NCBI GenBank assembly: GCA_964476155.1
Contig: CAYYYS010000012.1
Location: forward strand, 6,475-70,474
Direction of reading: 5' to 3'
Source: an uncultured Fibrobacteraceae bacterium
Lineage (GTDB): Bacteria; Krumholzibacteriota; Krumholzibacteriia; LZORAL124-64-63
DNA length: 64,000 nucleotides
Positions 7,790 to 61,522 of this stretch are shown here, one piece after another. Position 1 is the stretch's first letter. Each line of letters starts with the position of its first letter. The notes under the pieces are model-generated. The model saw only the letters and a list, made by a program, of their open reading frames with translations. It was not told the origin of the DNA and searched no databases. A program made the position numbers and the translations under genes.

Positions 7790-10327
7790 ATGAGGATCGC
7801 TGCTGTCGTCCTTTTGGTTATTTTGTTGTTCAGCGTCGCTTCGCTCGCTGAGGAGGTGGAGGAGGAGGAGGAAAAGCCGACACTGTCCATCGATACTTGG
7901 CTGTACAAGGCTCCCGTGAAGCTTGACTTGCCGGCCTTCCACGACGAGAAGCCGGGCGAGTTCACGGTAGACGATTTACTCGAAGCGCCGACGCCCGGCG
8001 CGGCCTCCCTGCGGCCCGCGGCCAAGACGAAGGGCTGGTCCAGGGACGACGGCACCATCGCGCTCGACTACCAGGGCGTGGTGGAAACCTGGCTGGCCAC
8101 CTACGTGACGGCCGATCGCTTTCTCGCAGTGCAACTGCAGCTACCGTTGGCCTGCAAAGCCACAGCCTGGTTGGATGGCGAAGCCGTATCCCTGTCGGGC
8201 GACGAACCCGCGGGCGAGCTCTCGCTCCAGAGCGGCACGAGCCTATTGCTGGTGCGCGTGATCCTGGGCGACGACGTGGCGGCCAAGGCGAAGCTGCAAG
8301 CCGACCTGAAGGGCGAGTTGGTCTTCGAGGACGAGGCCTTGCTCGAAGCCGTCACCTTCGACACCGACCCCACCCGCCCGGTCGACATCAACGACATCCT
8401 CGACGCCCCCAGGATCTCTTCGATCGCCCTGTCGCCCGATGGCGCCCATGTGGCCGTTTCCCTCGGCGCCTACGGACCCGGCGGCGAGCGCGAGACCTGG
8501 CTGGAGATTCGCGATACCAAGGACGGCGACCTGATTCGCTCCTGGCGCGGTGTCGACGGTCCCGGTCGCGTGCAGTGGCTGCCCACGACGCGAGCCGTTT
8601 CCTATACTTCCAACGACGACGACAAGACCACCGTGTGGGTCTACGACCTGGAGAAGGAAACCGTCACACCCGTCTTGCGCGGTGTCGAGGACTTCTCCCG
8701 CTACGCCTGGAATCCCGACGGCGAGTCGCTCGTCTACGCCTTCAGCGTCGAGGCCGAAGACGACGACCGTCAGGTCAAACGCCTCGAGGCCATCGAAGAC
8801 CGCTGGCCCTGGTGGCGCGGCCGCAGCTACCTGGTGGAGGTCGCCTATCCGGGCGGCGAGGCGCGGCGCCTGACCGCCGGCGACGTGAGCGCGTCGGGCT
8901 GGGCCTTCAGTCCCACCGGCAGCCACCTGCTCTTCTCGCGCACCTGGCCCGATCCGCAGAACCGGCCCTACTCGCGCACCGAATGGTACGAGATGACCCT
9001 CGACAACCTGCGCGTGGAAACCGTGCTGGCCGAACGCTGGATCAGCGATGTGAGCTACGGCCGGGATCGCGACACTTTCGTGCTGATCGGCTCGCCGTCC
9101 GCGTTCGACGGACTCGGACGCGACCTGCCCGAGGGCGTCATCCCCAACGATTACGGCGGACAGCTTTTCCTTTACGACCGCAAGACATCCACCCCCACAC
9201 CGCTCAGCCGCGACTTCGACCCCACCGTGCAGGGCGCGGTGTGGCACGACAGCGGCCGTATCGTCACGCGGGTTCTGGACAAGCAGTACCAACGCATCGC
9301 CATCTGTTCGACCCGGGGCGATTGGGAAATCTACGACACGGGTGTCGACGTGGTGGCCAACTGGGAAGTCTCGCGCAGGGCCAAGACCGTGGTCACCGTC
9401 GGCACCAGCGCCACCGGTCCGCAGCAGCTCACGGCCTTCGCGCTGAAAGGTCGCAAGCCGCGCGTGCTGCTCGACCCCGGCGCCGAGCGCTACGAGCCCG
9501 TAGCGTTCGGCAAGGTGGAGCCGTTCGTCGCCACCCTGTCCGACGGCATGGAACTCGACGGCCGCGTCTACTATCCGCTCGACTATGATCCCGCGCGCAA
9601 GTACCCGGTGATCGTCTACTACTACGGCGGCACCTACCCCATCACGCGTGACTTCGGCGGCCGTTATCCCAAGAACATCTGGGCGGGCCACGACTACTTC
9701 GTCTACACGCCCAACCCGAGCGGCGCCCTGGGCTACGGACAGGAGTTCGCGGCACGACACGTGAACGACTGGGGCAAGCTCACCGCGGGTGAAGTGATCG
9801 CGGGCACCGAGGCCTTCCTGAAGGCCTACCCCGCGGCCGACGCCGACGCTGTCGGTTGCATCGGCGCCAGCTACGGCGGTTTCCTCACCATGTACCTGGT
9901 CACCCAGACCGACATGTTCTCCGCGGCGGTCGCCCACGCGGGCATCTCCAACATCAGCAGCTATTGGGCCGAGGGATACTGGGGCTACGGCTACGGCGCG
10001 CGGGCGCTGGCCAACTCGTTCCCCTGGAACGCGCGCGATCTGTACGTGGAGCAAAGTCCGCTCTTCCACGCCGACAAGATCGACACGCCGCTGCTCCTGC
10101 TGCACGGTTTCGACGACACCAACGTGCCCAAGGGCGAGAGCGACGGTCTGTACATCGCCCTGACAATGCTCGGCAAAGAGGTCGAGTACGTGCAGGTCGA
10201 GGGACAAGACCATCACATCCTCGAGCACGACCGGAGGGTGGAATGGAACGATACGATCCTGGCCTGGTTCGCGCGGGAATTAAAAGCGCGACCCGGCTGG
10301 TGGGATGACATGTATCCATCTGAATAA
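7790..10327 (+). CDS. Secreted S9 family serine peptidase (prolyl oligopeptidase/acylaminoacyl-peptidase-like) with N-terminal beta-propeller
   Basis: RBS GGAGG 6 nt before ATG at 7790. Signal peptide MRIAAVVLLVILLFSVASLA. Catalytic Ser in GASYGG, Asp in HGFDDTNV, and a C-terminal His. The upstream 60 aa of the track ORF (GTG start) is unsupported. Confidence 0.9.
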   Translation: MRIAAVVLLVILLFSVASLAEEVEEEEEKPTLSIDTWLYKAPVKLDLPAFHDEKPGEFTVDDLLEAPTPGAASLRPAAKTKGWSRDDGTIALDYQGVVETWLATYVTADRFLAVQLQLPLACKATAWLDGEAVSLSGDEPAGELSLQSGTSLLLVRVILGDDVAAKAKLQADLKGELVFEDEALLEAVTFDTDPTRPVDINDILDAPRISSIALSPDGAHVAVSLGAYGPGGERETWLEIRDTKDGDLIRSWRGVDGPGRVQWLPTTRAVSYTSNDDDKTTVWVYDLEKETVTPVLRGVEDFSRYAWNPDGESLVYAFSVEAEDDDRQVKRLEAIEDRWPWWRGRSYLVEVAYPGGEARRLTAGDVSASGWAFSPTGSHLLFSRTWPDPQNRPYSRTEWYEMTLDNLRVETVLAERWISDVSYGRDRDTFVLIGSPSAFDGLGRDLPEGVIPNDYGGQLFLYDRKTSTPTPLSRDFDPTVQGAVWHDSGRIVTRVLDKQYQRIAICSTRGDWEIYDTGVDVVANWEVSRRAKTVVTVGTSATGPQQLTAFALKGRKPRVLLDPGAERYEPVAFGKVEPFVATLSDGMELDGRVYYPLDYDPARKYPVIVYYYGGTYPITRDFGGRYPKNIWAGHDYFVYTPNPSGALGYGQEFAARHVNDWGKLTAGEVIAGTEAFLKAYPAADADAVGCIGASYGGFLTMYLVTQTDMFSAAVAHAGISNISSYWAEGYWGYGYGARALANSFPWNARDLYVEQSPLFHADKIDTPLLLLHGFDDTNVPKGESDGLYIALTMLGKEVEYVQVEGQDHHILEHDRRVEWNDTILAWFARELKARPGWWDDMYPSE

Positions 10328-18574: not shown

Positions 18575-19090
18575 ATGGCTATCGAGCGTCCCGATCCGGC
18601 GACCTACGCCCGGTATTTCCAGCAGTATGTCGACCAGGTGCCCGAAGGGGATCTGCTGTTCACGCTCACCAGCCAGGTCGAAGCCACCTGCGCCCTGGTC
18701 GCGGGGTTCGGCGAGGAGGGGGCGCTGCATCGCTATGCCGAGGGCAAGTGGAGCGTGAAGGAAGTAGTCGGGCACGTGATCGACATGGAGCGGCTCTTCG
18801 GGTACCGCGCCCTGAGCTATGCGCGAGGAGATACGACGCCCCTGCCAAACGTCGAAGAGGACGAGTGGGCCGCCGCGTCCAACGCGAACACTCTCTCCCT
18901 GGCCGACCTGTTGGACGAACTGCTGTCGGTGCGTCGCGCCACGGTTGCTTTCTTCGCCAACCTGGACGCGGCGGCCTTGTCGCGGAATGGGATCGCCGGG
19001 GAGAACAAGTTGACCGTGGCCTGCATGGCCTGGGTTTTGGCGGGGCATGAGATTCATCATGGGGGGGTTGTTCGGGAGCGGTATAAATAG
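18575..19090 (+). CDS. DinB/YfiT-like (DinB_2) metal-dependent hydrolase superfamily protein
   Basis: 171 aa with conserved His residues (HVIDMER ... GHEIHHGG) in the characteristic four-helix-bundle spacing. Confidence 0.75.
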   Translation: MAIERPDPATYARYFQQYVDQVPEGDLLFTLTSQVEATCALVAGFGEEGALHRYAEGKWSVKEVVGHVIDMERLFGYRALSYARGDTTPLPNVEEDEWAAASNANTLSLADLLDELLSVRRATVAFFANLDAAALSRNGIAGENKLTVACMAWVLAGHEIHHGGVVRERYK

Positions 19091-19351
19091 CGTTGGGCAC
19101 ATGAAGAAAAGAACCACAAGGTTGAATCTGGTAGCTGTAAACTGGTGTATATTTTGAGGCCGCGTTTGGAGATGTCGGTGGTCATATGTCTTCCCGCCAC
19201 CTGTCTCCCTCCTTGGATTTCAGGCTGGATCCTTGGCTAAGTGTGAATTGTCGATCCCGGCGTATCCAAGACATAACATGTTGGTATATACCACATTGCC
19301 TCGTTTACCACCAAGCTTCAAGGCCTCAACGACCTAGTTGTCTTGGATAAA

Positions 19352-21018
19352 TCATATCCCGTCGGGAAGATCCCACTCCGGAACTGATCGTGATCCCCTG
19401 TTCTTGAGTAGACCGTCACGGCGAAGTGCCTGTAACAGGTTCTTCACCTTGTACTTCTTCTGCTCCATCGTGAGATGATCGGGCAGTTTCGACAACAAAG
19501 CATCATCGACATCGCGTCGGCCGACTGGCCCATGCTCCCTCACCAACTCCATGATCACGTCCAAGTAGTACTGCCGATCAAAACCTCGTTCACGAATATG
19601 CCGGCCCGCACCACCAGCCGCCTTGGCCACTTCCGCCGCTACAAAGAGGTTTGGGTACCGCCCCTCCACCAACCCCGCTTTCTTTAGCTTTCGATGCTCG
19701 TCCTTGGAAACCCGCACCTTCTTCTGCACCCTGTCCAAGAGCATGACATCAGCCAGATCTAGATCTGTTTGGGCCATCAGGAGCCGGCAGTACTTTTCGT
19801 CGAGGATCTCTCCCCGAATAGTCACAGACACTCTGTCTGCCACCGAGAGGTCATAGTCGGGTAGCGGAAAAACCGCTCCCTCTGGTGGACATACATCTTC
19901 CTGATGCCACCACCCTGAGTGTCGATCATGTTGAGGTTCACCATGGCCTCGGCCAGGAATGGATTCCGATAGGTTTCCTGGGGCGCATCCTGGCGAATAA
20001 CTGACTCCACATCCCCCGGCAGGAAGTCGCCAGCGTTTCTGAACAATACGCGATCGGGCGTTTCCGCGATGTTGATCCGCCCCCTCAGGCCATAATCCTG
20101 ATGCGCGATACAGTTATGCAACGCCTCGCGCAAAACCCATGGCTCGTACTGGGTGAACTCCCTTGGAAACAAAGTGCCGCTGGGTAGCGCCCGCAACGTC
20201 AGGTTCCGAATCTTCCCGGTAACACGGTCGACCTGTAATAGGAACGGCGGGAAGAAGTGCTCGTAGTCGAGATCCAGGTTCTTGCCATCCCTTAGAGTCC
20301 AAGTAATCTTCGCCACGGCCGGAGACAACAGCGTCGAAGATTCGTTCTTGCCGAGCAGAAGCATGGCTGTGTTCGTCACCCGACCGTTAATCGTGAGCTT
20401 GGATTTGTTCAGGAAGACTTCGTCGTCCCAACCGTCGATGTCCTCGCTCTGAGTCGGGTGCTTGATCCTGAACTGCTCACGAGCCTCGGCGATTGCGCTT
20501 GAGTCGAGATGTTCGAGATCAGCTTGCTCGCAGATGTCAGCTGACCAGTCATGGCCACTCGTCAGGATGGCTCTGAGGACTTCGGGGTGGTTGCGCAGGT
20601 TCGTTTTGCAGGAGCCTATGCGGGCGAAGGCCTCACTCTTGAAGTAGACGGGGCGACCTTGCGCTGCTCGGACGGTGAATACGACAACTCGGCCGTCAGG
20701 GTGATCCACGATTTCGACGTTGAAGCCTGGATTCGGATCGAGGCTCGTATTCAACCAGATCAGGAGGTCTTGATTGCCCACGGCCTTGACATTGTAGGGA
20801 TCGAAAACCGAGCCCACAACTTCGTGTGTTCCGTCGTGGATTCCGAAAACGAGGTAACCTTGGGGTTTGCACTTCCACGCGGCTGTGTTAGAGAGCGCAG
20901 ACAGATATTCGCCCAGCTCTTGGGGCTGATATCGGTTCGCCTTGAACTCGAACCATTCGCGCTCGGCGGGCTCAGCACGGAGGCGATCGATGAGGTCGAT
21001 GAGTTGCTGATGGGTCAT
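19352..21018 (-). pseudogene. AlbA_2 (Schlafen-like) + HATPase_c_4 'divergent AAA/RecG-C-terminal' putative transcriptional regulator, split by a 1-nt frameshift
   Basis: ORF 19822..21018 (398 aa; ...HNCIAHQDY...GGGIRKM...) and ORF 19352..19843 (163 aa; winged-helix C-terminus) overlap by 22 nt. The -1 frame gives a seamless ...QRERFFPLPDYDLSVADRVSVTIRGEIL... junction at a T5/A5 run (19868..19872). Sum is about 560 aa, the family's normal length. Confidence 0.7.
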
Positions 21019-21067
21019 GGTCGCCTCCTTTTCCGACTTTGTTTCAGTGTCGCAGATATTCTGATCA

Positions 21068-23116
21068 TCAACGAACCAAAACCGCCTTCATGGTATCGGA
21101 CACTCCCCGATTTCCCCTCACCCGCACGAAATACACACCTGACGGCACATCGCGCCCACGCGCACCTCGTCCATCCCACTTTACCGTGTGAATTCCCGGC
21201 TCGACCAATCCAAGCAAGACGGTCTTGATGAGCCGGCCGGCGACATCGTGGATCTCGAGGATCATCTTATCGGGAACCTGGCTTGTGAAGGCGATTTCGA
21301 TCGACGGGTTAAAGGGGTTGGGAGCCAGGGAATTGATCTCGTGTAGACGAGGGGATGAGATCGCGTGGGGCTCCGGGTCGTTGACTGCGGTCAAAGGGTC
21401 GCGGGTTAGGCCGAGGTTGAGATCAAAACCGGCTTCGACGGATATGAAATGCCAGTTCGCGGGCGGGGACGTATTAACCGCCATGTACATATCTCCCCCC
21501 CAGGCCAATCCTGTGCCGTCGCTCTTGACGGCCAGACTGTGACTCAGCCCCGCTGAGATCGCCACGAAATCGGTATTGGGCTCAGGCACGTCACATTGTC
21601 CAAAATCGTTCCACCCCCAGGCCTCTATCGAGCCGTCCGATCGCAGCGCCAGACTGTGCCCCCCTGCTGCAATTGCCATGTAGCCGGAATTGGGTAAGGG
21701 CACTTCGGCTTGACTATTTTCATGACCCCAAGCCGTGATCGATCCATCGGATTTTAGAGCCATGGCAGTCCCACAGCTTATCGAAATAGCAACAAAATCG
21801 GCATTCGGATCGGGAAGCTCCGACAACGAATGGTTTCCCGGCCCCCATGTCACGATCGTCCCGTCGGATTTCAATCCCACGCTCCAGAAACACGAAGCCT
21901 CAACTGCCACAAAACCCGCATTGGGTTCGGGAATCGTGCCCAAATCTGCGCCTTCTTCCCCCCATGTCACGACCGACCCGTCGGATTTCAGCGCGATGGT
22001 ATGCTCCTCACCCTCGGCGATGGACACGAAGTCGGCGTTCGGCTCTGGGATTTCACACCGGTTGAAATCGCACTCCTCCCCCCAGGACAGGATCGTGCCA
22101 TCAGACTTGAGAACGAAGTAGCGATAGAATCCCGCAGCGATCTCGACGATGTCAGTACTGAGCGGGGGTGCGAGATGCTGACAATTCCATGATTCCCCTC
22201 CCCACCCCATCACGGCGCCGTCGGATTTGATCCCGGCACTGTTCTGGTAACCGGCTGCGATCGTTACAAAATCCGCGTTCGGCTCGGGGACATCACACTG
22301 GCCGAAGTCGTTGCTCCCCCAGACCACGATCGTGCCATCGGACTTGAGTCCCATGCTGTGAAAGGTATACGCGGCGATCTTCACGAAATCCGTGTTCGGT
22401 TCGGGGATGTCACACTGGCCGTATCCATTCCACCCCCAGGCTACGATCGTGCCGTCGGACTTCAGACCGAGGCTATGGGCGCCACCCGAGGCGATGGCGA
22501 TGAAATCAATATTGGGCTCGGGGACATCACCTTGGCCGTATCCATTCCATCCCCAGGTCACGATCGAGCCGTCGGGCCTCAGACCCAGGTTGGAGGAACC
22601 GCAGGCCGAGAAAGCCGTGAAGCCCAAGTTCGGTTCGGGAATGTCGAGTCGCCCATATGTGCTATCGCCCCAGGCGACGATCGAACCGTCTGTTTTGAGC
22701 GCAAGAATGTGTTTGTAGCCGGCGTCGATATCGACGAAGCCGGTGTTCGGTTCGGGAACATCACTCACGTCGATGACTATGCTGTTGGTCCAGACCTCGA
22801 TCGAACCGTTCGTTTTCAAGCCGGCGCTGAAACGTTGACCCGCCGCGACTGCCGAATAACCAACGGCCGGGATCGGCAGATCGCACTGGACATCAGAGTT
22901 CGCGCCCCAGGCCACGATCGAACCATCGGAATTCAAGGCGATGGAGTGACCCTCGCCCATATCGATGTCGACGGGATGGGTGAAGAGTGTGGCATCCGCG
23001 ATGATGAAACGCGGCCATGCCACAAGGGAGCCGTTCTCCTGACCGAGAGCAAGGTTACCGACGATAAAAAACAGGCACAGAGTCAGTGAAGATATAGACA
23101 ATACGGATCGCCTCAT
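21068..23116 (-). CDS. Secreted RCC1 (regulator of chromosome condensation)-repeat beta-propeller protein with C-terminal T9SS/FlgD-Ig-like sorting domain
   Basis: Signal peptide MRRSVLSISSLTLCLFFIVGNLALG. About 10 repeats of ...SDGSIVAWGWNGYGQCDIPEPN.... CTD ...LAPNPFNPSIEIAFTS...IHDVAGRLIKTV...GVYFVRVRGNRG...KAVLVR. Confidence 0.85.
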   Translation of the reverse strand: MRRSVLSISSLTLCLFFIVGNLALGQENGSLVAWPRFIIADATLFTHPVDIDMGEGHSIALNSDGSIVAWGANSDVQCDLPIPAVGYSAVAAGQRFSAGLKTNGSIEVWTNSIVIDVSDVPEPNTGFVDIDAGYKHILALKTDGSIVAWGDSTYGRLDIPEPNLGFTAFSACGSSNLGLRPDGSIVTWGWNGYGQGDVPEPNIDFIAIASGGAHSLGLKSDGTIVAWGWNGYGQCDIPEPNTDFVKIAAYTFHSMGLKSDGTIVVWGSNDFGQCDVPEPNADFVTIAAGYQNSAGIKSDGAVMGWGGESWNCQHLAPPLSTDIVEIAAGFYRYFVLKSDGTILSWGEECDFNRCEIPEPNADFVSIAEGEEHTIALKSDGSVVTWGEEGADLGTIPEPNAGFVAVEASCFWSVGLKSDGTIVTWGPGNHSLSELPDPNADFVAISISCGTAMALKSDGSITAWGHENSQAEVPLPNSGYMAIAAGGHSLALRSDGSIEAWGWNDFGQCDVPEPNTDFVAISAGLSHSLAVKSDGTGLAWGGDMYMAVNTSPPANWHFISVEAGFDLNLGLTRDPLTAVNDPEPHAISSPRLHEINSLAPNPFNPSIEIAFTSQVPDKMILEIHDVAGRLIKTVLLGLVEPGIHTVKWDGRGARGRDVPSGVYFVRVRGNRGVSDTMKAVLVR

Positions 23117-23198
23117 GGAACTCCCTTTCCGTGGCGGTAATATTGCATCGATTTATATGAGATTACATTATCTGCCCTTTCCGTGAAATGGCCTAATA

Positions 23199-23228
23199 CA
23201 AAAACCCCACCTCCAAAGAGGCGGGGCA
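23199..23228 (-). terminator. Rho-independent terminator downstream of the lipoprotein gene 23250..24539
   Basis: Minus-strand hairpin ccccgcctc-tttg-gaggtgggg followed by TTTTT (plus 23200-23204 aaaaa). Confidence 0.55.
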
Positions 23229-36030: not shown

Positions 36031-37269
36031 GTGCCCGAAGCCCAGCCCGCGTCCACAGCCTTGTCCGTAATCGCCGCCCATTACGCCGAGATCGCCCTCA
36101 AGGGGCGCAACCGGAACATGTTCGTCAAGCGCCTGAAGAACAACATGTTCACGGCCCTGCGTGGCGAACCCGTCCGTGCCATCAATCACGTGGAGAGCCG
36201 GTTGCTGGTGAGGTTGGAGGACCACGAAGCCGTCGAACGGGTCGTCGACAAGCTGGGCCGCGTGTTCGGCATCCAGTGGCTGTCGGCCGCGACGCCGGTC
36301 TTGCGCACCGATGATCACGAGGCCGACCTGGACCGCGTCACCGAAACGGCGATCAATCTTGCGCGTCGCGACGCCGCCGACGCCACCAGCTTCCGCGTGG
36401 ACGCCCGTCGCTCGGACAAGTCCTTCCCCATGAACTCGCAGGCCATCAACACGCGCGTGGGCGGCGCCCTGCAGCCGGTCCTCGATTTGCCCGTCAATCT
36501 GAAGCACGCCGACTTTGCGGCCCACCTGCTGGTGCTGCAAAAGGAGATTCTGGTCTTCACCGCCCGGATCCGCTGCGGCGGCGGTCTGCCCGTGGGCGTG
36601 AGCGGCCGACTCGCGGTCCTCCTCTCGGGCGGCATCGACTCGCCGGTAGCGGCGTGGATGATGATGAAACGCGGCTGTCGTCCCGAGTTCGTGCATTTTT
36701 TTCCCGGACGCTCGCGCGACGAGGCCGTCGTCGACAAGATCATACGGGTGGCGTCCATCCTCGCGACCTGGTCGCCGCGACCGATCACCCTGCACCTGGT
36801 GCCGGCCTATCCCTACGAGTCGCGCGCGGTCGGCGTGGTGGAGGACGCCTTCGACATGGTGCTCTTCCGCCGCTACATGGTGAAGACGGCGGAGCGCATC
36901 GCCCGCCGCGAGAACTGTCTGGCCCTGGTGACCGGCGACAGCGTCGGCCAGGTGGCCAGCCAGACCCTGCACAACCTGCGCGCCATCAGCCCCGACCTCA
37001 CGCTGCCGATCCTGCGGCCGCTGGTGGGGCTGGACAAGATCGAGATCACCGACCTGAGCCGTCGCATCGGCGTCTTCGAGACGTCGATCGAACCGTACCG
37101 CGACTGCTGCTCGATCCGCTCGCCCAAGCCCGTGCTCAACGCGCATCCCAACGAGGTGCTGGCACAATCCGAGACGATGGGGATGGACGAGGCGGTGGAC
37201 GAGGCGGTCAAGACGTCGGAGAAGATCAAGGTGGGGCCGGAGGGAATCGTCGAAGCTAACTCGCAATAA
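36031..37269 (+). CDS. thiI: tRNA 4-thiouridine(8) synthase ThiI
   Basis: GTG start with RBS GGAGG 6 nt upstream. THUMP-domain N-terminus ...AAHYAEIALKGRNRNMF.... PP-loop SGGIDSPVAA. C-terminal ...CCSIRSPKP.... Confidence 0.9.
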   Translation: MPEAQPASTALSVIAAHYAEIALKGRNRNMFVKRLKNNMFTALRGEPVRAINHVESRLLVRLEDHEAVERVVDKLGRVFGIQWLSAATPVLRTDDHEADLDRVTETAINLARRDAADATSFRVDARRSDKSFPMNSQAINTRVGGALQPVLDLPVNLKHADFAAHLLVLQKEILVFTARIRCGGGLPVGVSGRLAVLLSGGIDSPVAAWMMMKRGCRPEFVHFFPGRSRDEAVVDKIIRVASILATWSPRPITLHLVPAYPYESRAVGVVEDAFDMVLFRRYMVKTAERIARRENCLALVTGDSVGQVASQTLHNLRAISPDLTLPILRPLVGLDKIEITDLSRRIGVFETSIEPYRDCCSIRSPKPVLNAHPNEVLAQSETMGMDEAVDEAVKTSEKIKVGPEGIVEANSQ

Positions 37270-37861
37270 CGCGTCTGACCGCCTTCACCCGCTGCCGCCA
37301 CCACCCGTTGTCGATGCTGTCGATGCGAATGTGCTTGCCCGTACCCGGCGCGTGGACGAACTGGCCCTTGCCCACATAGATGCCCACGTGGGAAATAACA
37401 TCCCGATCGATACGGAAGAAGATCAGGTCGCCCCGCAGCATGGTGCGCAGGGTCGTGGTGCGGCCGGAGCGCGACTGGTTGCGCGCGGTGCGCGGCAGAT
37501 TCACGCCCACTTCGCGATAGACGTACTGGACGAGGCCGCTGCAGTCGAAGCCCTGGGGCGTGGTGCCGCCGTAGACGTACGGGACGCCCAGGAACGACAG
37601 GGCCATGTCGCAAACCAGGTCGGACGGGGGCTGGGTGCGGTCGATGTCCTGCCACTGGATCCGTGAAGTGGGACGATCCTGAGCGGGGGGGGGGATAATG
37701 CGATCGCGGGCCGGGGGGGCCGGATCCGTCCGGGAGACGGGGGTGGACGCGGGCAGCTTGCCACGCCAATGCGGGGCGCATCCGGACAGCAAAAGCAGTG
37801 CGGACAACAGGATAACCGTTGCCGCCGCCAGGGACGTCCGTGTCCGCTTGCCAGCATCCAT
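37256..37861 (-). CDS. NlpC/P60 (C40) family cell-wall peptidase lipoprotein
   Basis: Lipobox MDAGKRTRTSLAAATVILLSALLLLSGC. C40 catalytic region ...GVPYVYGGTTPQGFDCSGLVQYVY...H.GIYVG. Confidence 0.8.
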   Translation of the reverse strand: MDAGKRTRTSLAAATVILLSALLLLSGCAPHWRGKLPASTPVSRTDPAPPARDRIIPPPAQDRPTSRIQWQDIDRTQPPSDLVCDMALSFLGVPYVYGGTTPQGFDCSGLVQYVYREVGVNLPRTARNQSRSGRTTTLRTMLRGDLIFFRIDRDVISHVGIYVGKGQFVHAPGTGKHIRIDSIDNGWWRQRVKAVRRVIAS

Positions 37862-37988
37862 ACTGGAGAGTGTAGATAAAGTCCGGTTCATTGTCACGGC
37901 CTGGACTTGCAAGAATCGTGCACGGGGTAAATACGGTCGACCCGCCTTGGCAGCAAGGGCGGGGGCTGTTAGATTCAAACTCGGATTA

Positions 37989-38145
37989 TTCATGAATGAG
38001 CGTGGCGAGGGTGTGTATGCTCAAGTCTGACAGGGCGCCCGCAAGGTTTTGGGACCGAGGCGTGCCTGTAGGCACGTTGAGGGAGCAAAACCGAGGACGT
38101 GCTGTCAGACTTGAGCATACGCGACCGCAGTAGCTCATTTATGAA
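37989..38145. repeat. Long structured inverted-repeat element: perfect 19-bp arms GTATGCTCAAGTCTGACAG (38015..38033 / 38102..38120), extended imperfectly to about 45 bp, enclosing a 68-nt core with an inner palindrome CGTGCC-TGTA-GGCACG
   Basis: Seen directly in the intergenic region between the NlpC/P60 gene (-) and the rlmD-like gene (+). No coding potential. Compatible with a MITE, a cis-regulatory RNA or a protein-binding site. Confidence 0.55.
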
Positions 38146-38183
38146 TAGTCCGGGTTAGCCACCTTTCAACTCGAGGAGTCAGG

Positions 38184-39548
38184 ATGAACGAGACCACCGG
38201 CCCGACCGGCACCGACACCGGCCCGCAGCCCGGCGACATCGTCGAGATCACCATCGACAAGCTGGTGACCGGCGGCAACGGCCTCGGCCGTACCTCCGAA
38301 GGCCTGGCCGCTTTCGTACCGGGCACCATCCCCGGTGAACGGGCGAGCGCGCGTGTGATCCGTTGCAAGAAGGGATTCGTGCAGACGGACCTGATCGAAA
38401 TCCTCGAGGCCTCCCCCGATCGCATCGAGCCGCCCCTGGGCGAGATCGGCGCCCTGTCCGGCTGCGACCTGCAGCACATGAGCGACGAAGCCCAACGTCG
38501 TGCCAAGACGGACATCGTCCGCGACTGTTTCGAACGACTGGGCAAGCTGGAAATGGGCGACAAGCTGACCGGCCCCGAACCCGCCGGCCCTCCGCTCGGC
38601 TACCGCAACAAACTGCGCCTGTGGCGGTCGCCCACCGGCCAGTACGGCGTGCGACGCAAAGGCAGCCACGACATCCTGGAAGTCACAACCCACGGACTGA
38701 TGCCCGATCTGTTCAACGAGCAGGTCATGCCCTTCCTGCGGACCATGCCGCCGGTGGACGAAGCCGTCGCGCGGTTGGACGGACAAGGCGGCTTCCTGTT
38801 GGCGCTCTTCGGACCGCCGGAACGCCTGCGTACCTTGAAGGCCATACTCAAGGCCTTGCCCGACGGCGAACCGCCCCACCCGGCCTGCGTCGGCATCCTC
38901 TACAACAATCGGCCCGCCTGGGGACGCGATCATCTGCTGGCCAAGACGGCCGGCCACACCTACCGCGTGCAGGCCGGCAGTTTTTTCCAGGTGAATTACG
39001 CCGAGGCTACGGCGGCCGTGGCCCTGGCGAGCACCTGGCTCGACGAAGCCGGCGTCACACGGGACGCGCGTGGCGGCGCCCTGGCCGACCTCTATTGCGG
39101 TGTGGGTTTGTTCGCCCTGGCCCTGGGCGACCGGTTCGAGCGGGTAATCGGCATTGAAAACGACGAGCGTGCCGTGCGCGACGCCCTGAACAACCTGAAA
39201 CGCGCCGACCGCGAAGCCGAGATCGTCAAGGCCGACACGACGAAGGTGTTGTCCCGTTGGCGAGAGGGTCCATGGCGTGACGGCGACCGTCGTTTTGAGG
39301 CCCCGGACTGGCCGAACACCACGATCATGCTGGACCCCCCGCGCACCGGACTCGGCGACGCGGCGACCGGCCACCTGGCGGACATGTCCCCCGCCCGCAT
39401 CATCTATATGAGCTGCGATCCCGCCACCCTGGCGCGCGACTGCGGTAAGCTGTGCGGCAGCGGTTACGATTTGAAGCGGGTCCGGGTCATCGACATGTTC
39501 CCTCAGACGGGGCACATAGAATGCCTGGCCGAACTGGTGCGCACATAA
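38184..39548 (+). CDS. rlmD: TRAM-domain class I SAM-dependent RNA (uracil-5-)-methyltransferase, RlmD/RumA-like
   Basis: RBS GAGGAG. N-terminal TRAM (...GDIVEITIDKLVTGGNGLGR...). C-terminal MTase with ...DLYCGVGLFAL.., ..MLDPPRTG.. and ..YMSCDPATLARD.. motifs. Confidence 0.85.
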   Translation: MNETTGPTGTDTGPQPGDIVEITIDKLVTGGNGLGRTSEGLAAFVPGTIPGERASARVIRCKKGFVQTDLIEILEASPDRIEPPLGEIGALSGCDLQHMSDEAQRRAKTDIVRDCFERLGKLEMGDKLTGPEPAGPPLGYRNKLRLWRSPTGQYGVRRKGSHDILEVTTHGLMPDLFNEQVMPFLRTMPPVDEAVARLDGQGGFLLALFGPPERLRTLKAILKALPDGEPPHPACVGILYNNRPAWGRDHLLAKTAGHTYRVQAGSFFQVNYAEATAAVALASTWLDEAGVTRDARGGALADLYCGVGLFALALGDRFERVIGIENDERAVRDALNNLKRADREAEIVKADTTKVLSRWREGPWRDGDRRFEAPDWPNTTIMLDPPRTGLGDAATGHLADMSPARIIYMSCDPATLARDCGKLCGSGYDLKRVRVIDMFPQTGHIECLAELVRT

Positions 39549-60210: not shown

Positions 60211-60496
60211 GTCGATAATCCGCTTATACGTTTTGGGCGATCCGCGTCTGATTATAGCAGATCTGTGGATTATATGCGTATCGATTTACCTAATAATGGG
60301 GGTGTTTGTACGGGAGGCATTTCTGTGCTTGGTTGGAGGCTTTCGGTGCGCATAAATCATACCCGCGTGCGCCTGTAACTTATAACATAGCATGATGTTA
60401 GCGCTTGCGCTGCTGGTGTTTTTCGGCTATATTGTCTCCATCGAATGCATCCGTTTCGACCTCCCGCGAAACGCTCGTTTTCTGGGAGGTTTTTCT

Positions 60497-61522
60497 ATGT
60501 CAGCCAGCGAAATCCATGCTCGTCTTCAAGCGGCTTTGAGTGAACTTCAGCGGGCGGAGAAGAACGCCGTTCTGTTGTTCGGCGAGATTCTTCGGCGCAA
60601 GTTGTATCGGGATCTTGGTTACTCATCTATTCAGGTTTATGCCGCCGAAGCGCTCGGGTTCTCACCGAGTAAGACTTCGCAGTTTGTGCGACTGGCGGGG
60701 GCGCTCGAAGAGCTGCCGCAGCTGCGTCGATCGGTGGCGGCCGGTGAGTTGGGGTGGACCAAGGCGCGGGAGGTGGCCAAGGTGGCTACGCCCGAAAGTG
60801 AAGAGAGATGGATCGCCGAGGCGGAGCGGTCGAGTAGTCGCAAGTTGGAGCAAACGGTGCGGGCAACACGCAAGCGGGCGCGCCTGGCGCCGCAAGTTGC
60901 GGAGCTGCCTGCGCTGGACCTGGGCGAGCCATCGCCAGCGCTGCCCACGGACGCTCCGCTCTCGGTGAGTACAAAACTCACGGCCGAACAGTACGCCCGC
61001 CACGAGGCTCTGTTCGAGACGATCCGCAAACGAGGCAACCGAAAAAACTCGACAGTACGGGGTATGGACCGCGCCGAGTTGTTGCTCGTCGCGCTGAACG
61101 ATCTGGCGGAGAAGCTCGCGCAAGAGCCGGAAACCAAGATCGTCTCCAGCCCGCCTTATCAAGTCGTAGTTTACACGTGTAAAAAGTGTGGCAAGTCCGA
61201 GGTGCAAACCGACCGCGGTCCAAAGCCCATATCAACTGAAGTTGTGCATTGCGACGCCGTCATCCATGAGCCTAGCCAGCCCAATCGCTCGACCATCCCG
61301 CCGAAAACCCGTCAGGCTGCCATGATCAAGGCCAACCATCGTTGCGAGACACCGGGATGCGGGCGGACACGGTTCCTGGAGGTTCATCATCGGCGTCCGC
61401 GATCGCTGGGGGGCAGCAACGAGGTGACCAACCTCCAGGTGCTATGTTCGAGTTGCCACCAGCTGGTCCATCAACGAGGACAATCGCAACCGGCACAGCA
61501 TCAATATGAGAAAACGGGGTAA
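60497..61522 (+). CDS. HNH endonuclease (DUF222-HNH type)
   Basis: RBS GGGAGG before the internal ATG. C-terminal ...CETPGCGRTRFLEVHHRRPRSLGGSNEVTNLQVLCSSCHQLVH (HNH with Zn Cys). Confidence 0.8.
   Translation: MSASEIHARLQAALSELQRAEKNAVLLFGEILRRKLYRDLGYSSIQVYAAEALGFSPSKTSQFVRLAGALEELPQLRRSVAAGELGWTKAREVAKVATPESEERWIAEAERSSSRKLEQTVRATRKRARLAPQVAELPALDLGEPSPALPTDAPLSVSTKLTAEQYARHEALFETIRKRGNRKNSTVRGMDRAELLLVALNDLAEKLAQEPETKIVSSPPYQVVVYTCKKCGKSEVQTDRGPKPISTEVVHCDAVIHEPSQPNRSTIPPKTRQAAMIKANHRCETPGCGRTRFLEVHHRRPRSLGGSNEVTNLQVLCSSCHQLVHQRGQSQPAQHQYEKTG

Follow-up and report, generated by a model that had tools for sequence, protein, structure and literature searches.

Within the window, the 64,000-nt stretch of DNA that we analyzed, a spacer separates two divergent genes: an NlpC/P60 lipoprotein gene on the minus strand and a gene for a TRAM- and U5-methyltransferase-domain, RlmD-like protein (hereafter rlmD) on the plus strand. 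The spacer holds a 179-nt element (37978-38156) that forms a single hairpin nearly end to end, as delimited by a repeat scan and by comparison with empty sites (Table 1). A preliminary description had recognized the divergent gene pair and had placed an inverted-repeat element with imperfect outward extensions at 37989-38145. The outer arms listed there, TTCATGAATGAGC / GCTCATTTATGAA, are present, each within 24 nt (37978-38001 and 38133-38156), but the pairing reaches further than described. The perfect 19-bp arms GTATGCTCAAGTCTGACAG are found as reported, at 38015-38033 and 38102-38120, and can be extended to 26 nt at 88%. This 19-mer matches twice in the window, against 0.01 matches expected by chance. 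The reported 68-nt core, with its CGTGCC-TGTA-GGCACG palindrome and GGGAG stretch, likewise lies between the arms.

Table 1. Positions in the window of the hairpin element, its parts and neighboring sites.
Feature	Position	Strand	Basis or remark
Whole mobile hairpin element	37978-38156	+ (better-pairing strand)	L015 empty sites; homology to copy 2 and the short copy
Left terminal inverted repeat, outer stem 5′ arm, AACTCGGATTATTCATGAATGAGC	37978-38001	+	Repeat scan; pairs with 38133-38156
Asymmetric internal loop, left side, GTGGCGAGGG	38002-38011	+	Not palindromic with right side (fold)
22-bp uninterrupted helix, 5′ arm, including the 19-bp perfect arm	38012-38033	+	Columns 35-56 with 125-146
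Core, 68 nt	38034-38101	+	Apical hairpin CGTGCC-TGTA-GGCACG (38061-38076); two GGGA-containing internal loops
22-bp helix, 3′ arm	38102-38123	+	Fold and helix table
Asymmetric internal loop, right side, within GCGACCGCAGTAGCTCATT	38124-38132	+	Three-copy alignment
Right terminal inverted repeat, outer stem 3′ arm, GCTCATTTATGAATAGTCCGGGTT	38133-38156	+	Repeat scan and fold
Host rlmD promoter-like site, outside the element	37947-37975	+	-35 TTGGCA, 17-nt spacer, extended -10 TGtTAGATT (consensus scan)
Original short rlmD leader, RBS GAGGAG at 38173-38178, ATG at 38184	38157-38183	+	One substitution relative to the L015 leader
Empty target site GAAGCT^AACTCG, junction after 37257	37256-37259		Short copy here in L015 and L031

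The same element sequence occurs in at least six independent assemblies and is therefore not an assembly artefact. It is the sole long inverted repeat in the window, as judged by a scan of the entire 64 kb, and neither that scan nor an arm search allowing up to 3 mismatches detected a further copy there. The element had been described as free of ORFs. Mechanical ORFs of 42-50 aa do exist in it, and none has a relative among 5.8 billion or 1.84 billion predicted proteins. Searching predicted proteins for element-derived peptides as a route to more copies gave no candidates, the single low-complexity hit being due to chance.

Upon RNA folding, a check that had been proposed for the element, both strands gave structures far beyond chance: -116 kcal/mol for the plus strand (z = -14.6) and -90 kcal/mol for the minus strand (z = -12.5). 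The 24-bp terminal repeats pair through 21 Watson-Crick and three G:U pairs, and the left repeat AACTCGGATTATTCATGAATGAGC includes a small palindrome, ATTCATGAAT. The proposed comparison with Rfam matched no family. The whole window gave no match at gathering thresholds, and at the locus itself, with E values up to 10, the best sub-threshold hit was Clostridiales-1 (19 bits compared to the 48 required). We thus rejected the 6S RNA, riboswitch and sRNA families of Rfam, none of which scored at the gathering threshold. No tRNA or tmRNA was found in the window.

Contigs encoding an identical RlmD protein fall into three groups. The first represents the same locus as the window (L001-L003, L007), the second begins inside the element (L005, L006, L009), and the third (L004 and L008, from independent JGI assemblies) differs in the gene upstream and has a left arm that has diverged. 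Five contigs from different assemblies terminate within the element. Breaking or joining inside the element is behavior typical of a repeat or a palindrome. The upstream gene of L004 and L008 is the C-terminal piece of an ATP:ADP-antiporter-like protein, and tracing this gene led us to two further contigs (L011 and L012), which carry a complete second copy of the element at 1638-1817. This copy, hereafter copy 2, is 180 nt long and is identical to the window copy at 162 of 180 positions (90%) without indels. Its locus is unrelated to rlmD: it is co-oriented with the upstream antiporter-like gene and overlaps the stop codon of that gene inside its left arm.

The contigs with copy 2 co-occur with the window lineage in the same samples, and copy 2 is placed in the window genome solely by this co-occurrence and by the hybrid contigs L004 and L008. 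In L004 (1638-1817) and in L008, the left arm of copy 2, on the antiporter side, is joined to the right half of copy 1, on the rlmD side, with the crossover within 70 identical central nucleotides. Because L011 and L012 hold copy 2 in full, L004 and L008 are joins across the repeat, which would be either real recombinants between copies or repeat-induced assembly chimeras. The antiporter-like gene (L004/L011, 372-1659) is called as two ORFs of 244 and 166 aa about 50 nt apart and so may be frameshifted or pseudogenized. All contigs with this gene are shorter than 6 kb, suggesting that the region assembles badly, and a 26-aa ORF lies in the lower-GC stretch after copy 2. Antiporter homologues in two relatives (L014 and P0002) leave no room for the element 3′ of the gene.

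A covariance model built from the copies identified a third member, a 93-nt short copy in the sister lineage L015 (1811-1903; 70 bits), which we found again in an independent sample (L031, 9164-9256). Its terminal repeats are perfect (24/24; AACCCGGATTATTCATGAATGAGC). A deletion between two GCG triplets has removed its centre; the core at 38034-38101, which is deleted in the short copy, is nearly invariant between the long copies. The 19-nt segment GCGACCGCAGTAGCTCATT, which holds the element's single GTAG, is identical in all three members. In L015 and L031, the short copy sits between the thiI and NlpC/P60 genes, inside their convergent overlap. These genes overlap by 14 nt, and both ORFs remain intact after the insertion, with stop codons provided by the terminal repeats; ThiI ends in ...EAANPDYS* instead of ...EANSQ*, and the NlpC/P60 end, ...VIAS*, is unchanged. 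The additional copies that the preliminary description had asked for as a sign of a MITE-like element, and whose lack it had named among its grounds for refutation, are thus at hand. Three insertion sites of the family are known, two of them attributed to the window lineage; this is a minimum for the two sister lineages, which belong to an uncultured marine bacterium.

We compared the NlpC/P60-rlmD spacer with its orthologues. The nearest named relatives by RlmD are Candidatus Krumholzibacteriota, at 46-54% identity. We read the orthologous spacer in L015, whose RlmD is 91% identical, and in L016, L022 and L019, where the identity is 71-73%, and in all four the rlmD promoter motif and the short leader are kept and the hairpin is absent. 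The L015 spacer reads ...GTTAGATTGA^AGCCTCCTTTCAAC..., with GATTGA^AGCC where the window carries the 179-nt element (...GTTAGATTCA[AACTCGG...CCGGGTT]AGCCACCTTTCAAC...). In P0243, a lineage within the 90% cluster for which the gene table was used, the spacer measures only 143 nt, indicating that it is empty as well. Besides L015, the rlmD insertion is therefore absent from four more distant relatives (L016, L022, L019 and P0243). Reciprocally, the window is uninterrupted (GAAGCT^AACTCG) at the site of the short copy, where the stop regions of thiI and NlpC/P60 overlap by 14 nt (37256-37269). As the sister lineages are reciprocally empty and filled and the outgroups are empty, the insertions are gains rather than losses, and the comparison dates the gain of the window copy to after the split between the window and L015 lineages.

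Both filled and empty pairs allow a parse without any mutation, in which a symmetric AACYCGG...CCGGGTT is inserted with no duplication or, equivalently, with a 1-nt duplication of A. At the thiI site, but not at the rlmD site, the duplication could be TA (or TAA); the rlmD site allows 0-1 nt (A). The ancestral rlmD site TTGAAGCC has no TA, and copy 2 is flanked by GA...TA. We did not adopt a TA-duplicating (IS630/mariner-type) insertion because the rlmD empty site lacks TA.

Taken with the copies at unrelated loci and the clean empty orthologous sites, the earlier suggestion of a MITE-like element stands in its main part, with the reservations that the rlmD site shows a duplication of only 0-1 nt and that no partner transposase was found. 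We consider it likely that the spacer carries a copy of a small "foldback" mobile repeat, non-coding and non-autonomous, that pairs over its whole length and is of the MITE, REPIN or Correia kind.

The two long copies differ at 18 positions, which we sorted on the 72-pair fold common to both. Ten differences make up five doubly changed pairs (AU/GC, UA/AU, UA/GU, AU/CG and CG/UA), six are single changes that each yield a G:U on the plus strand, and the remaining two fall in a loop, so that no pair is broken between the two paralogues. The two loop differences are both in the left internal loop, 38002-38011 (columns 27 and 34). Within the 22-bp helix, two changes relative to copy 2 are fully compensatory, A:U to C:G and C:G to U:A. 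Each copy forms 63-64 Watson-Crick and 8-9 G:U pairs on the plus strand, with a single C.A opposition, and distinct wobble sites number 12 G:U on the plus strand compared to one C.A (binomial p = 0.003). In strain variants L030 and L010, A40G converts an A:U into a G:U pair; one C.A mismatch is found in L010 only. Across the alignment, 99.5% of cells pair compared to 29-40% with slid partners, although a shuffle control on only three sequences was weak (20/500).

The strand bias is also seen in the folding energies. With RNA parameters, the plus strands of the two long copies reach -119 and -126 kcal/mol compared to -91 and -95 kcal/mol for the minus strands; with DNA parameters, the values are -58.6 and -47.4 kcal/mol. 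The advantage of the plus strand is thus about 26-31 kcal/mol as RNA and about 11 kcal/mol as DNA. The covariance model R1 scores the window copy at 208 bits on the plus strand and 97 bits on the minus strand. As no difference between the long copies breaks the hairpin, we infer strand-specific selection on structure, in RNA or in single-stranded DNA, with the hairpin of the plus strand alone apparently kept by selection. The plus strand is favored under both sets of parameters, and hence the data do not separate RNA from single-stranded DNA.

Divergence is distributed unevenly along the element, with one difference in the 94 central columns compared to 17 in the 86 outer columns (Fisher p = 1.9e-5). 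The conserved centre could reflect purifying selection for a sequence-specific function or gene conversion between copies. If recognition by a transposase were the only constraint, the terminal repeats would be expected to be better conserved than the centre, the opposite of what is seen. What is most interesting in the remainder is this combination of structural conservation on one strand, an almost invariant centre and no clear target duplication.

These same features would suit a family of structured non-coding RNA genes, paralogous sRNAs or a protein-binding RNA, in which the 94-nt centre is functional and the element merely spreads or duplicates: the centre is almost invariant (1/94 compared to 17/86), the stems covary through five compensatory pairs, pairing is kept on the plus strand only, and two GGGA-containing internal loops are exposed. 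We find this reading improbable, as the element has no promoter or terminator of its own and no Rfam match, and its copies lie in unrelated contexts (a 5′ leader, over a stop codon, and in the overlap of two convergent genes). They are also present or absent between lineages at about 91% RlmD identity, and one member has lost the whole centre yet retains perfect terminal repeats. Recent gene conversion explains the invariant centre as well, and hybrid contigs (L004 and L008) exist. A stand-alone sRNA gene is accordingly unlikely. A variant in which the element is a mobile RNA module, with its 94-nt centre selected for a sequence-specific job and spreading to new transcripts in an uncultivated phylum, would be a long shot. 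For example, RNase III might cut the 22-24-bp helices and so free a protein-binding or trans-acting RNA from host transcripts, or the centre might serve as the structure recognized by an undescribed transposition system that acts on single strands and inserts without target duplication.

A strand-specific hairpin that tolerates G:T and has no evident target duplication could also be a recombination site read as folded single-stranded DNA, either integron attC-like or a tyrosine or serine recombinase site. We hold this to be very unlikely: the right ends GTTAGCC, GTTAACT and GCTAAAC misfit the attC R''/R' consensus (RYYYAAC...GTTRRRY), no integrase or cassette array lies nearby, and the insertions carry no cargo. 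An integron attC site, defined by R''-L''...L'-R' with RYYYAAC and GTTRRRY ends together with cassettes or an integrase, was rejected on the same grounds. An element derived from IS200/IS605 is ruled out by the 24-bp terminal inverted repeats. Such elements are expected to have no terminal repeats, to have subterminal hairpins and to insert 3′ of a fixed tetra- or pentanucleotide, and the left flanks of the three members (TTCA, CCGG and AGCT) share no motif.

Returning to the mobile repeat that we favor, the window copy is placed such that it could affect its host gene. The promoter-like site upstream of rlmD contains TTGGCAG-N14-TGTTAGnTTG, which is invariant in five lineages spanning 71-100% RlmD identity. 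The element starts 2 nt past the -10 hexamer and ends 27 nt before the start codon. A scan detected no promoter-like site within the element and no terminator-like site after it or elsewhere in 37800-38300. The rlmD RBS lies outside the long hairpin, and in the minimum free energy fold of the leader, part of it is paired in a small local stem.

The upstream block CTTGGCAG-N14-TGTTAGnTTG is invariant even where the upstream neighbor of rlmD differs (L019). A similar block, TTGGCAG...GATAGGCT, lies upstream of a PMT_2/TPR gene in L019 (about 8250-8290), and blocks of the TTGGCAG-N14-TGTTAGnTTG type may be the housekeeping promoter consensus of the clade. The window and L015 share a small hairpin with 11-nt arms (CCCGCCTTGGC-A-GCAAGGGCGGG; 37941-37963 in the window) that overlaps the rlmD -35 hexamer and is not evident in more distant relatives.

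Lying 2 nt after a conserved promoter, the element should form the 5′ end of the rlmD mRNA. At the usual distance from the -10 hexamer, transcription would start at about 37981-37985, inside the left arm, and the element would be transcribed as the first ~175 nt of the message. Judging from the fold, a hairpin of about 72 base pairs, within which two helices of 24 and 22 bp run without interruption, most probably forms the start of the rlmD mRNA. The proposal of a long stem-loop RNA, made in the preliminary description, therefore gains indirect support from the position just downstream of a conserved promoter and from stem changes that preserve pairing on the plus strand, with transcription itself predicted from the layout.

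The stability of the hairpin, and the location of two of the three family members at gene 3′ ends, might suggest an intrinsic or bidirectional terminator. We regard this function as highly improbable: the stem is not followed by a U tract on either strand, the position of the window copy between the promoter and rlmD means that termination would silence the gene, and terminators are far smaller than 179 nt and 72 pairs. The preliminary description had also suggested a large operator for the divergent genes, and a palindrome in the spacer between NlpC/P60 and rlmD might invite such a reading, or that of a regulatory site used by both. It is refuted and deserves next to no weight because relatives with the same gene pair and promoter lack the element, and homologous copies lie beside unrelated genes.

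Duplexes of 22-24 bp are typical RNase III substrates, and 5′-terminal stems shield E. coli mRNAs from 5′-end-dependent decay. With the repeat inserted between the promoter and the coding region of rlmD, we hypothesize that transcription from the rlmD promoter would place it at the 5′ end of the mRNA and that its RNA would fold into the hairpin of about 72 bp ahead of the rlmD RBS. The long duplex could then alter the fate of the message, as either a protective 5′-terminal stem or an RNase III substrate. By analogy with Correia elements located between a promoter and a gene, a changed fate of the rlmD message is the most likely consequence. For Correia elements (CREE) in this position, experiments have shown transcription as well as RNase III cleavage; they belong to the mRNA, and their hairpin is bound or cut by RNase III (PMC2649163).

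For the mobilization of the element, presumably an enzyme encoded elsewhere in the genome acts in trans. A classical transposase that duplicates TA fits less well with a target duplication of at most 1 nt at both empty sites and with pairing preserved on only one strand, which hint at a non-DDE mechanism, either single-strand (HUH/RAYT-like) or other. No transposase was found in the low-GC parts of the window, and neither those parts nor the genome and viral pattern scans yielded a transposase or parent IS with matching terminal repeats.

To look for further members, we scanned 185,579 GTDB species genomes for the exact pattern of both inner arms and obtained no matches; in a single scan of metagenome contigs, the inner-arm pattern returned solely the same locus in another strain (L010). 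The conserved right segment gave one chance match among the GTDB genomes, in a low-GC Gastranaerophilales MAG that was negative with the covariance model. Three scans of IMG/VR (arms, terminal repeat and centre) and a plasmid blastn gave no matches. Apart from one of the IMG/VR scans, the genome and viral pattern scans used segments other than the terminal repeat. Covariance-model searches detected no element in about 80 kb from the relatives at 71-73% or in 20 kb from an antiporter-bearing relative, no copy in about 57 kb of L024-L029 (7 kb of it past the right edge of the window), and known sites only in L030 and L031. The scans suggest that the family is narrow or is poorly assembled in public data.

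We then compared the element with known systems. MITEs are defined as small, non-coding, dispersed elements with terminal repeats of at least 10-15 bp and a target duplication of 2-10 bp (PMC11602168, PMC3184786), and they classically fold into long, very stable RNA stem-loops (PMC3184786). At 179 nt and without a transposase gene, the element lies in the MITE size range of 50-800 bp; its terminal repeats of 24 bp exceed 10-15 bp. It is dispersed and polymorphic, with three unrelated loci and reciprocal empty sites in the sister lineages and four outgroups.

Like the Correia (CREE/NEMIS) elements of Neisseria, the element is small and non-coding, with terminal repeats around a directional core. 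Both families have long and short (internally deleted) size classes, adjoin or overlap gene ends and vary in presence between strains, and the window copy shows the same promoter-element-gene layout. Unlike CREE, which number about 120-250 per genome, our family is known from two or three sites, has no sequence similarity to them and occurs in an unrelated phylum; in addition, pairing in the window element spans nearly its entire length, and conservation is higher in the centre than at the ends. The target duplicated by CREE is TA, whereas a duplication of at most 1 nt fits both empty sites here. The CREE core ends CCGGTACGG / TCAGGACAA and IHF site CTTCAGCACCTTA (PMC2649163) are absent from the element. 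CREE are confined to Neisseria and the host is a high-GC marine lineage near Krumholzibacteriota; we thus rejected membership and take the resemblance to be functional only.

REPINs are non-autonomous, extragenic elements that form a hairpin over their whole length "in ssDNA or mRNA", with common compensatory changes (PMC3116915). The element resembles them in its whole-length hairpin and compensatory changes. A single-strand HUH mechanism would agree with its strand-specific pairing and with the absence of a clear target duplication. REPINs differ in being about 70-110 nt long, with conserved REP ends and a variable spacer, the opposite of the element. REPs are typically tagged with GTAG or CGTC at each unit (PMC3733652), while the element has a single GTAG (38130-38133), on one side only. 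A REPIN also combines two inverted REP units, each with a short G+C-rich palindrome, and is mobilized by a RAYT transposase, whose gene is flanked by REPs; no RAYT gene was seen.

ERIC/IRU, RU-1/RU-2, RUP, Chunjie and Nezha are, like the element, imperfect palindromes (about 100-170 bp) in transcribed intergenic regions (PMC3184786, PMC2759123). As RNA, these repeats likewise form stem-loops that are long and very stable, and at times they overlap the ends of genes (PMC3184786, PMC2759123). They differ from the element in sequence and in having recognizable target duplications and, for several, a known related IS, neither of which was found here. As it has no sequence similarity to the named families, the element is not a member of any of them. 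It represents a new family within a familiar class of small mobile repeats, whose way of working it shares, and not a regulator built for the flanking genes.

To our knowledge, no such elements have been described in lineages near Krumholzibacteriota. Hairpin-forming mobile repeats that are active or recently active are documented here in this uncultivated marine lineage, with filled and empty sites on both sides. The substitution pattern provides unusually clean evidence for selection on the fold of one strand in a mobile repeat. Because all stem changes are compensated or yield G:U on one strand, the family could help to separate constraints at the RNA level from those at the level of single-stranded DNA. 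The insertion also constitutes a natural experiment on leader structure and expression in a gene for an RlmD-like 23S rRNA methyltransferase. Furthermore, the element breaks (five contigs) or mis-joins (two hybrids, if these are chimeras) metagenome contigs, which matters for binning and for synteny claims in the source datasets.

We noted several other loci in the window and its relatives. Compared to a GC content of 0.63 overall, the island at 19000-23200 has a GC of 0.53-0.59. Horizontal acquisition is possible for this island, which encodes a Schlafen/AlbA_2 and HATPase_c_4 protein (19822-21018, minus strand) and an RCC1-repeat protein of 682 aa whose C-terminus carries a FlgD_ig domain (21068-23116, minus strand). 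The low-GC parts of the window also hold a radical SAM protein and others. An HNH endonuclease with a DUF222 domain is encoded at 60392-61522 (plus strand), in a lower-GC stretch at about 58-61 kb. Contigs from other assemblies (L026-L028) end in or beside this gene, suggesting a strain-variable or mobile region.

Three contigs (L025, L027 and L028) end within about 100 nt downstream of an Iso_dh gene (isocitrate/isopropylmalate dehydrogenase family), and their sequence near the ends differs from that of L024 (about 2250-2370). This junction is strain-variable, lies beyond the right end of the window and is unrelated to the hairpin element; as L024-L029 contain no copy, the contig ends near Iso_dh have another cause. 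Finally, the covariance model assigned 34 bits, by structure alone and with no sequence similarity to the element, to a 75-nt, G+C-rich, nearly perfect hairpin in L019 (15395-15469). It lies just after an LTD/FlgD_ig gene and probably marks the end of a transcript.
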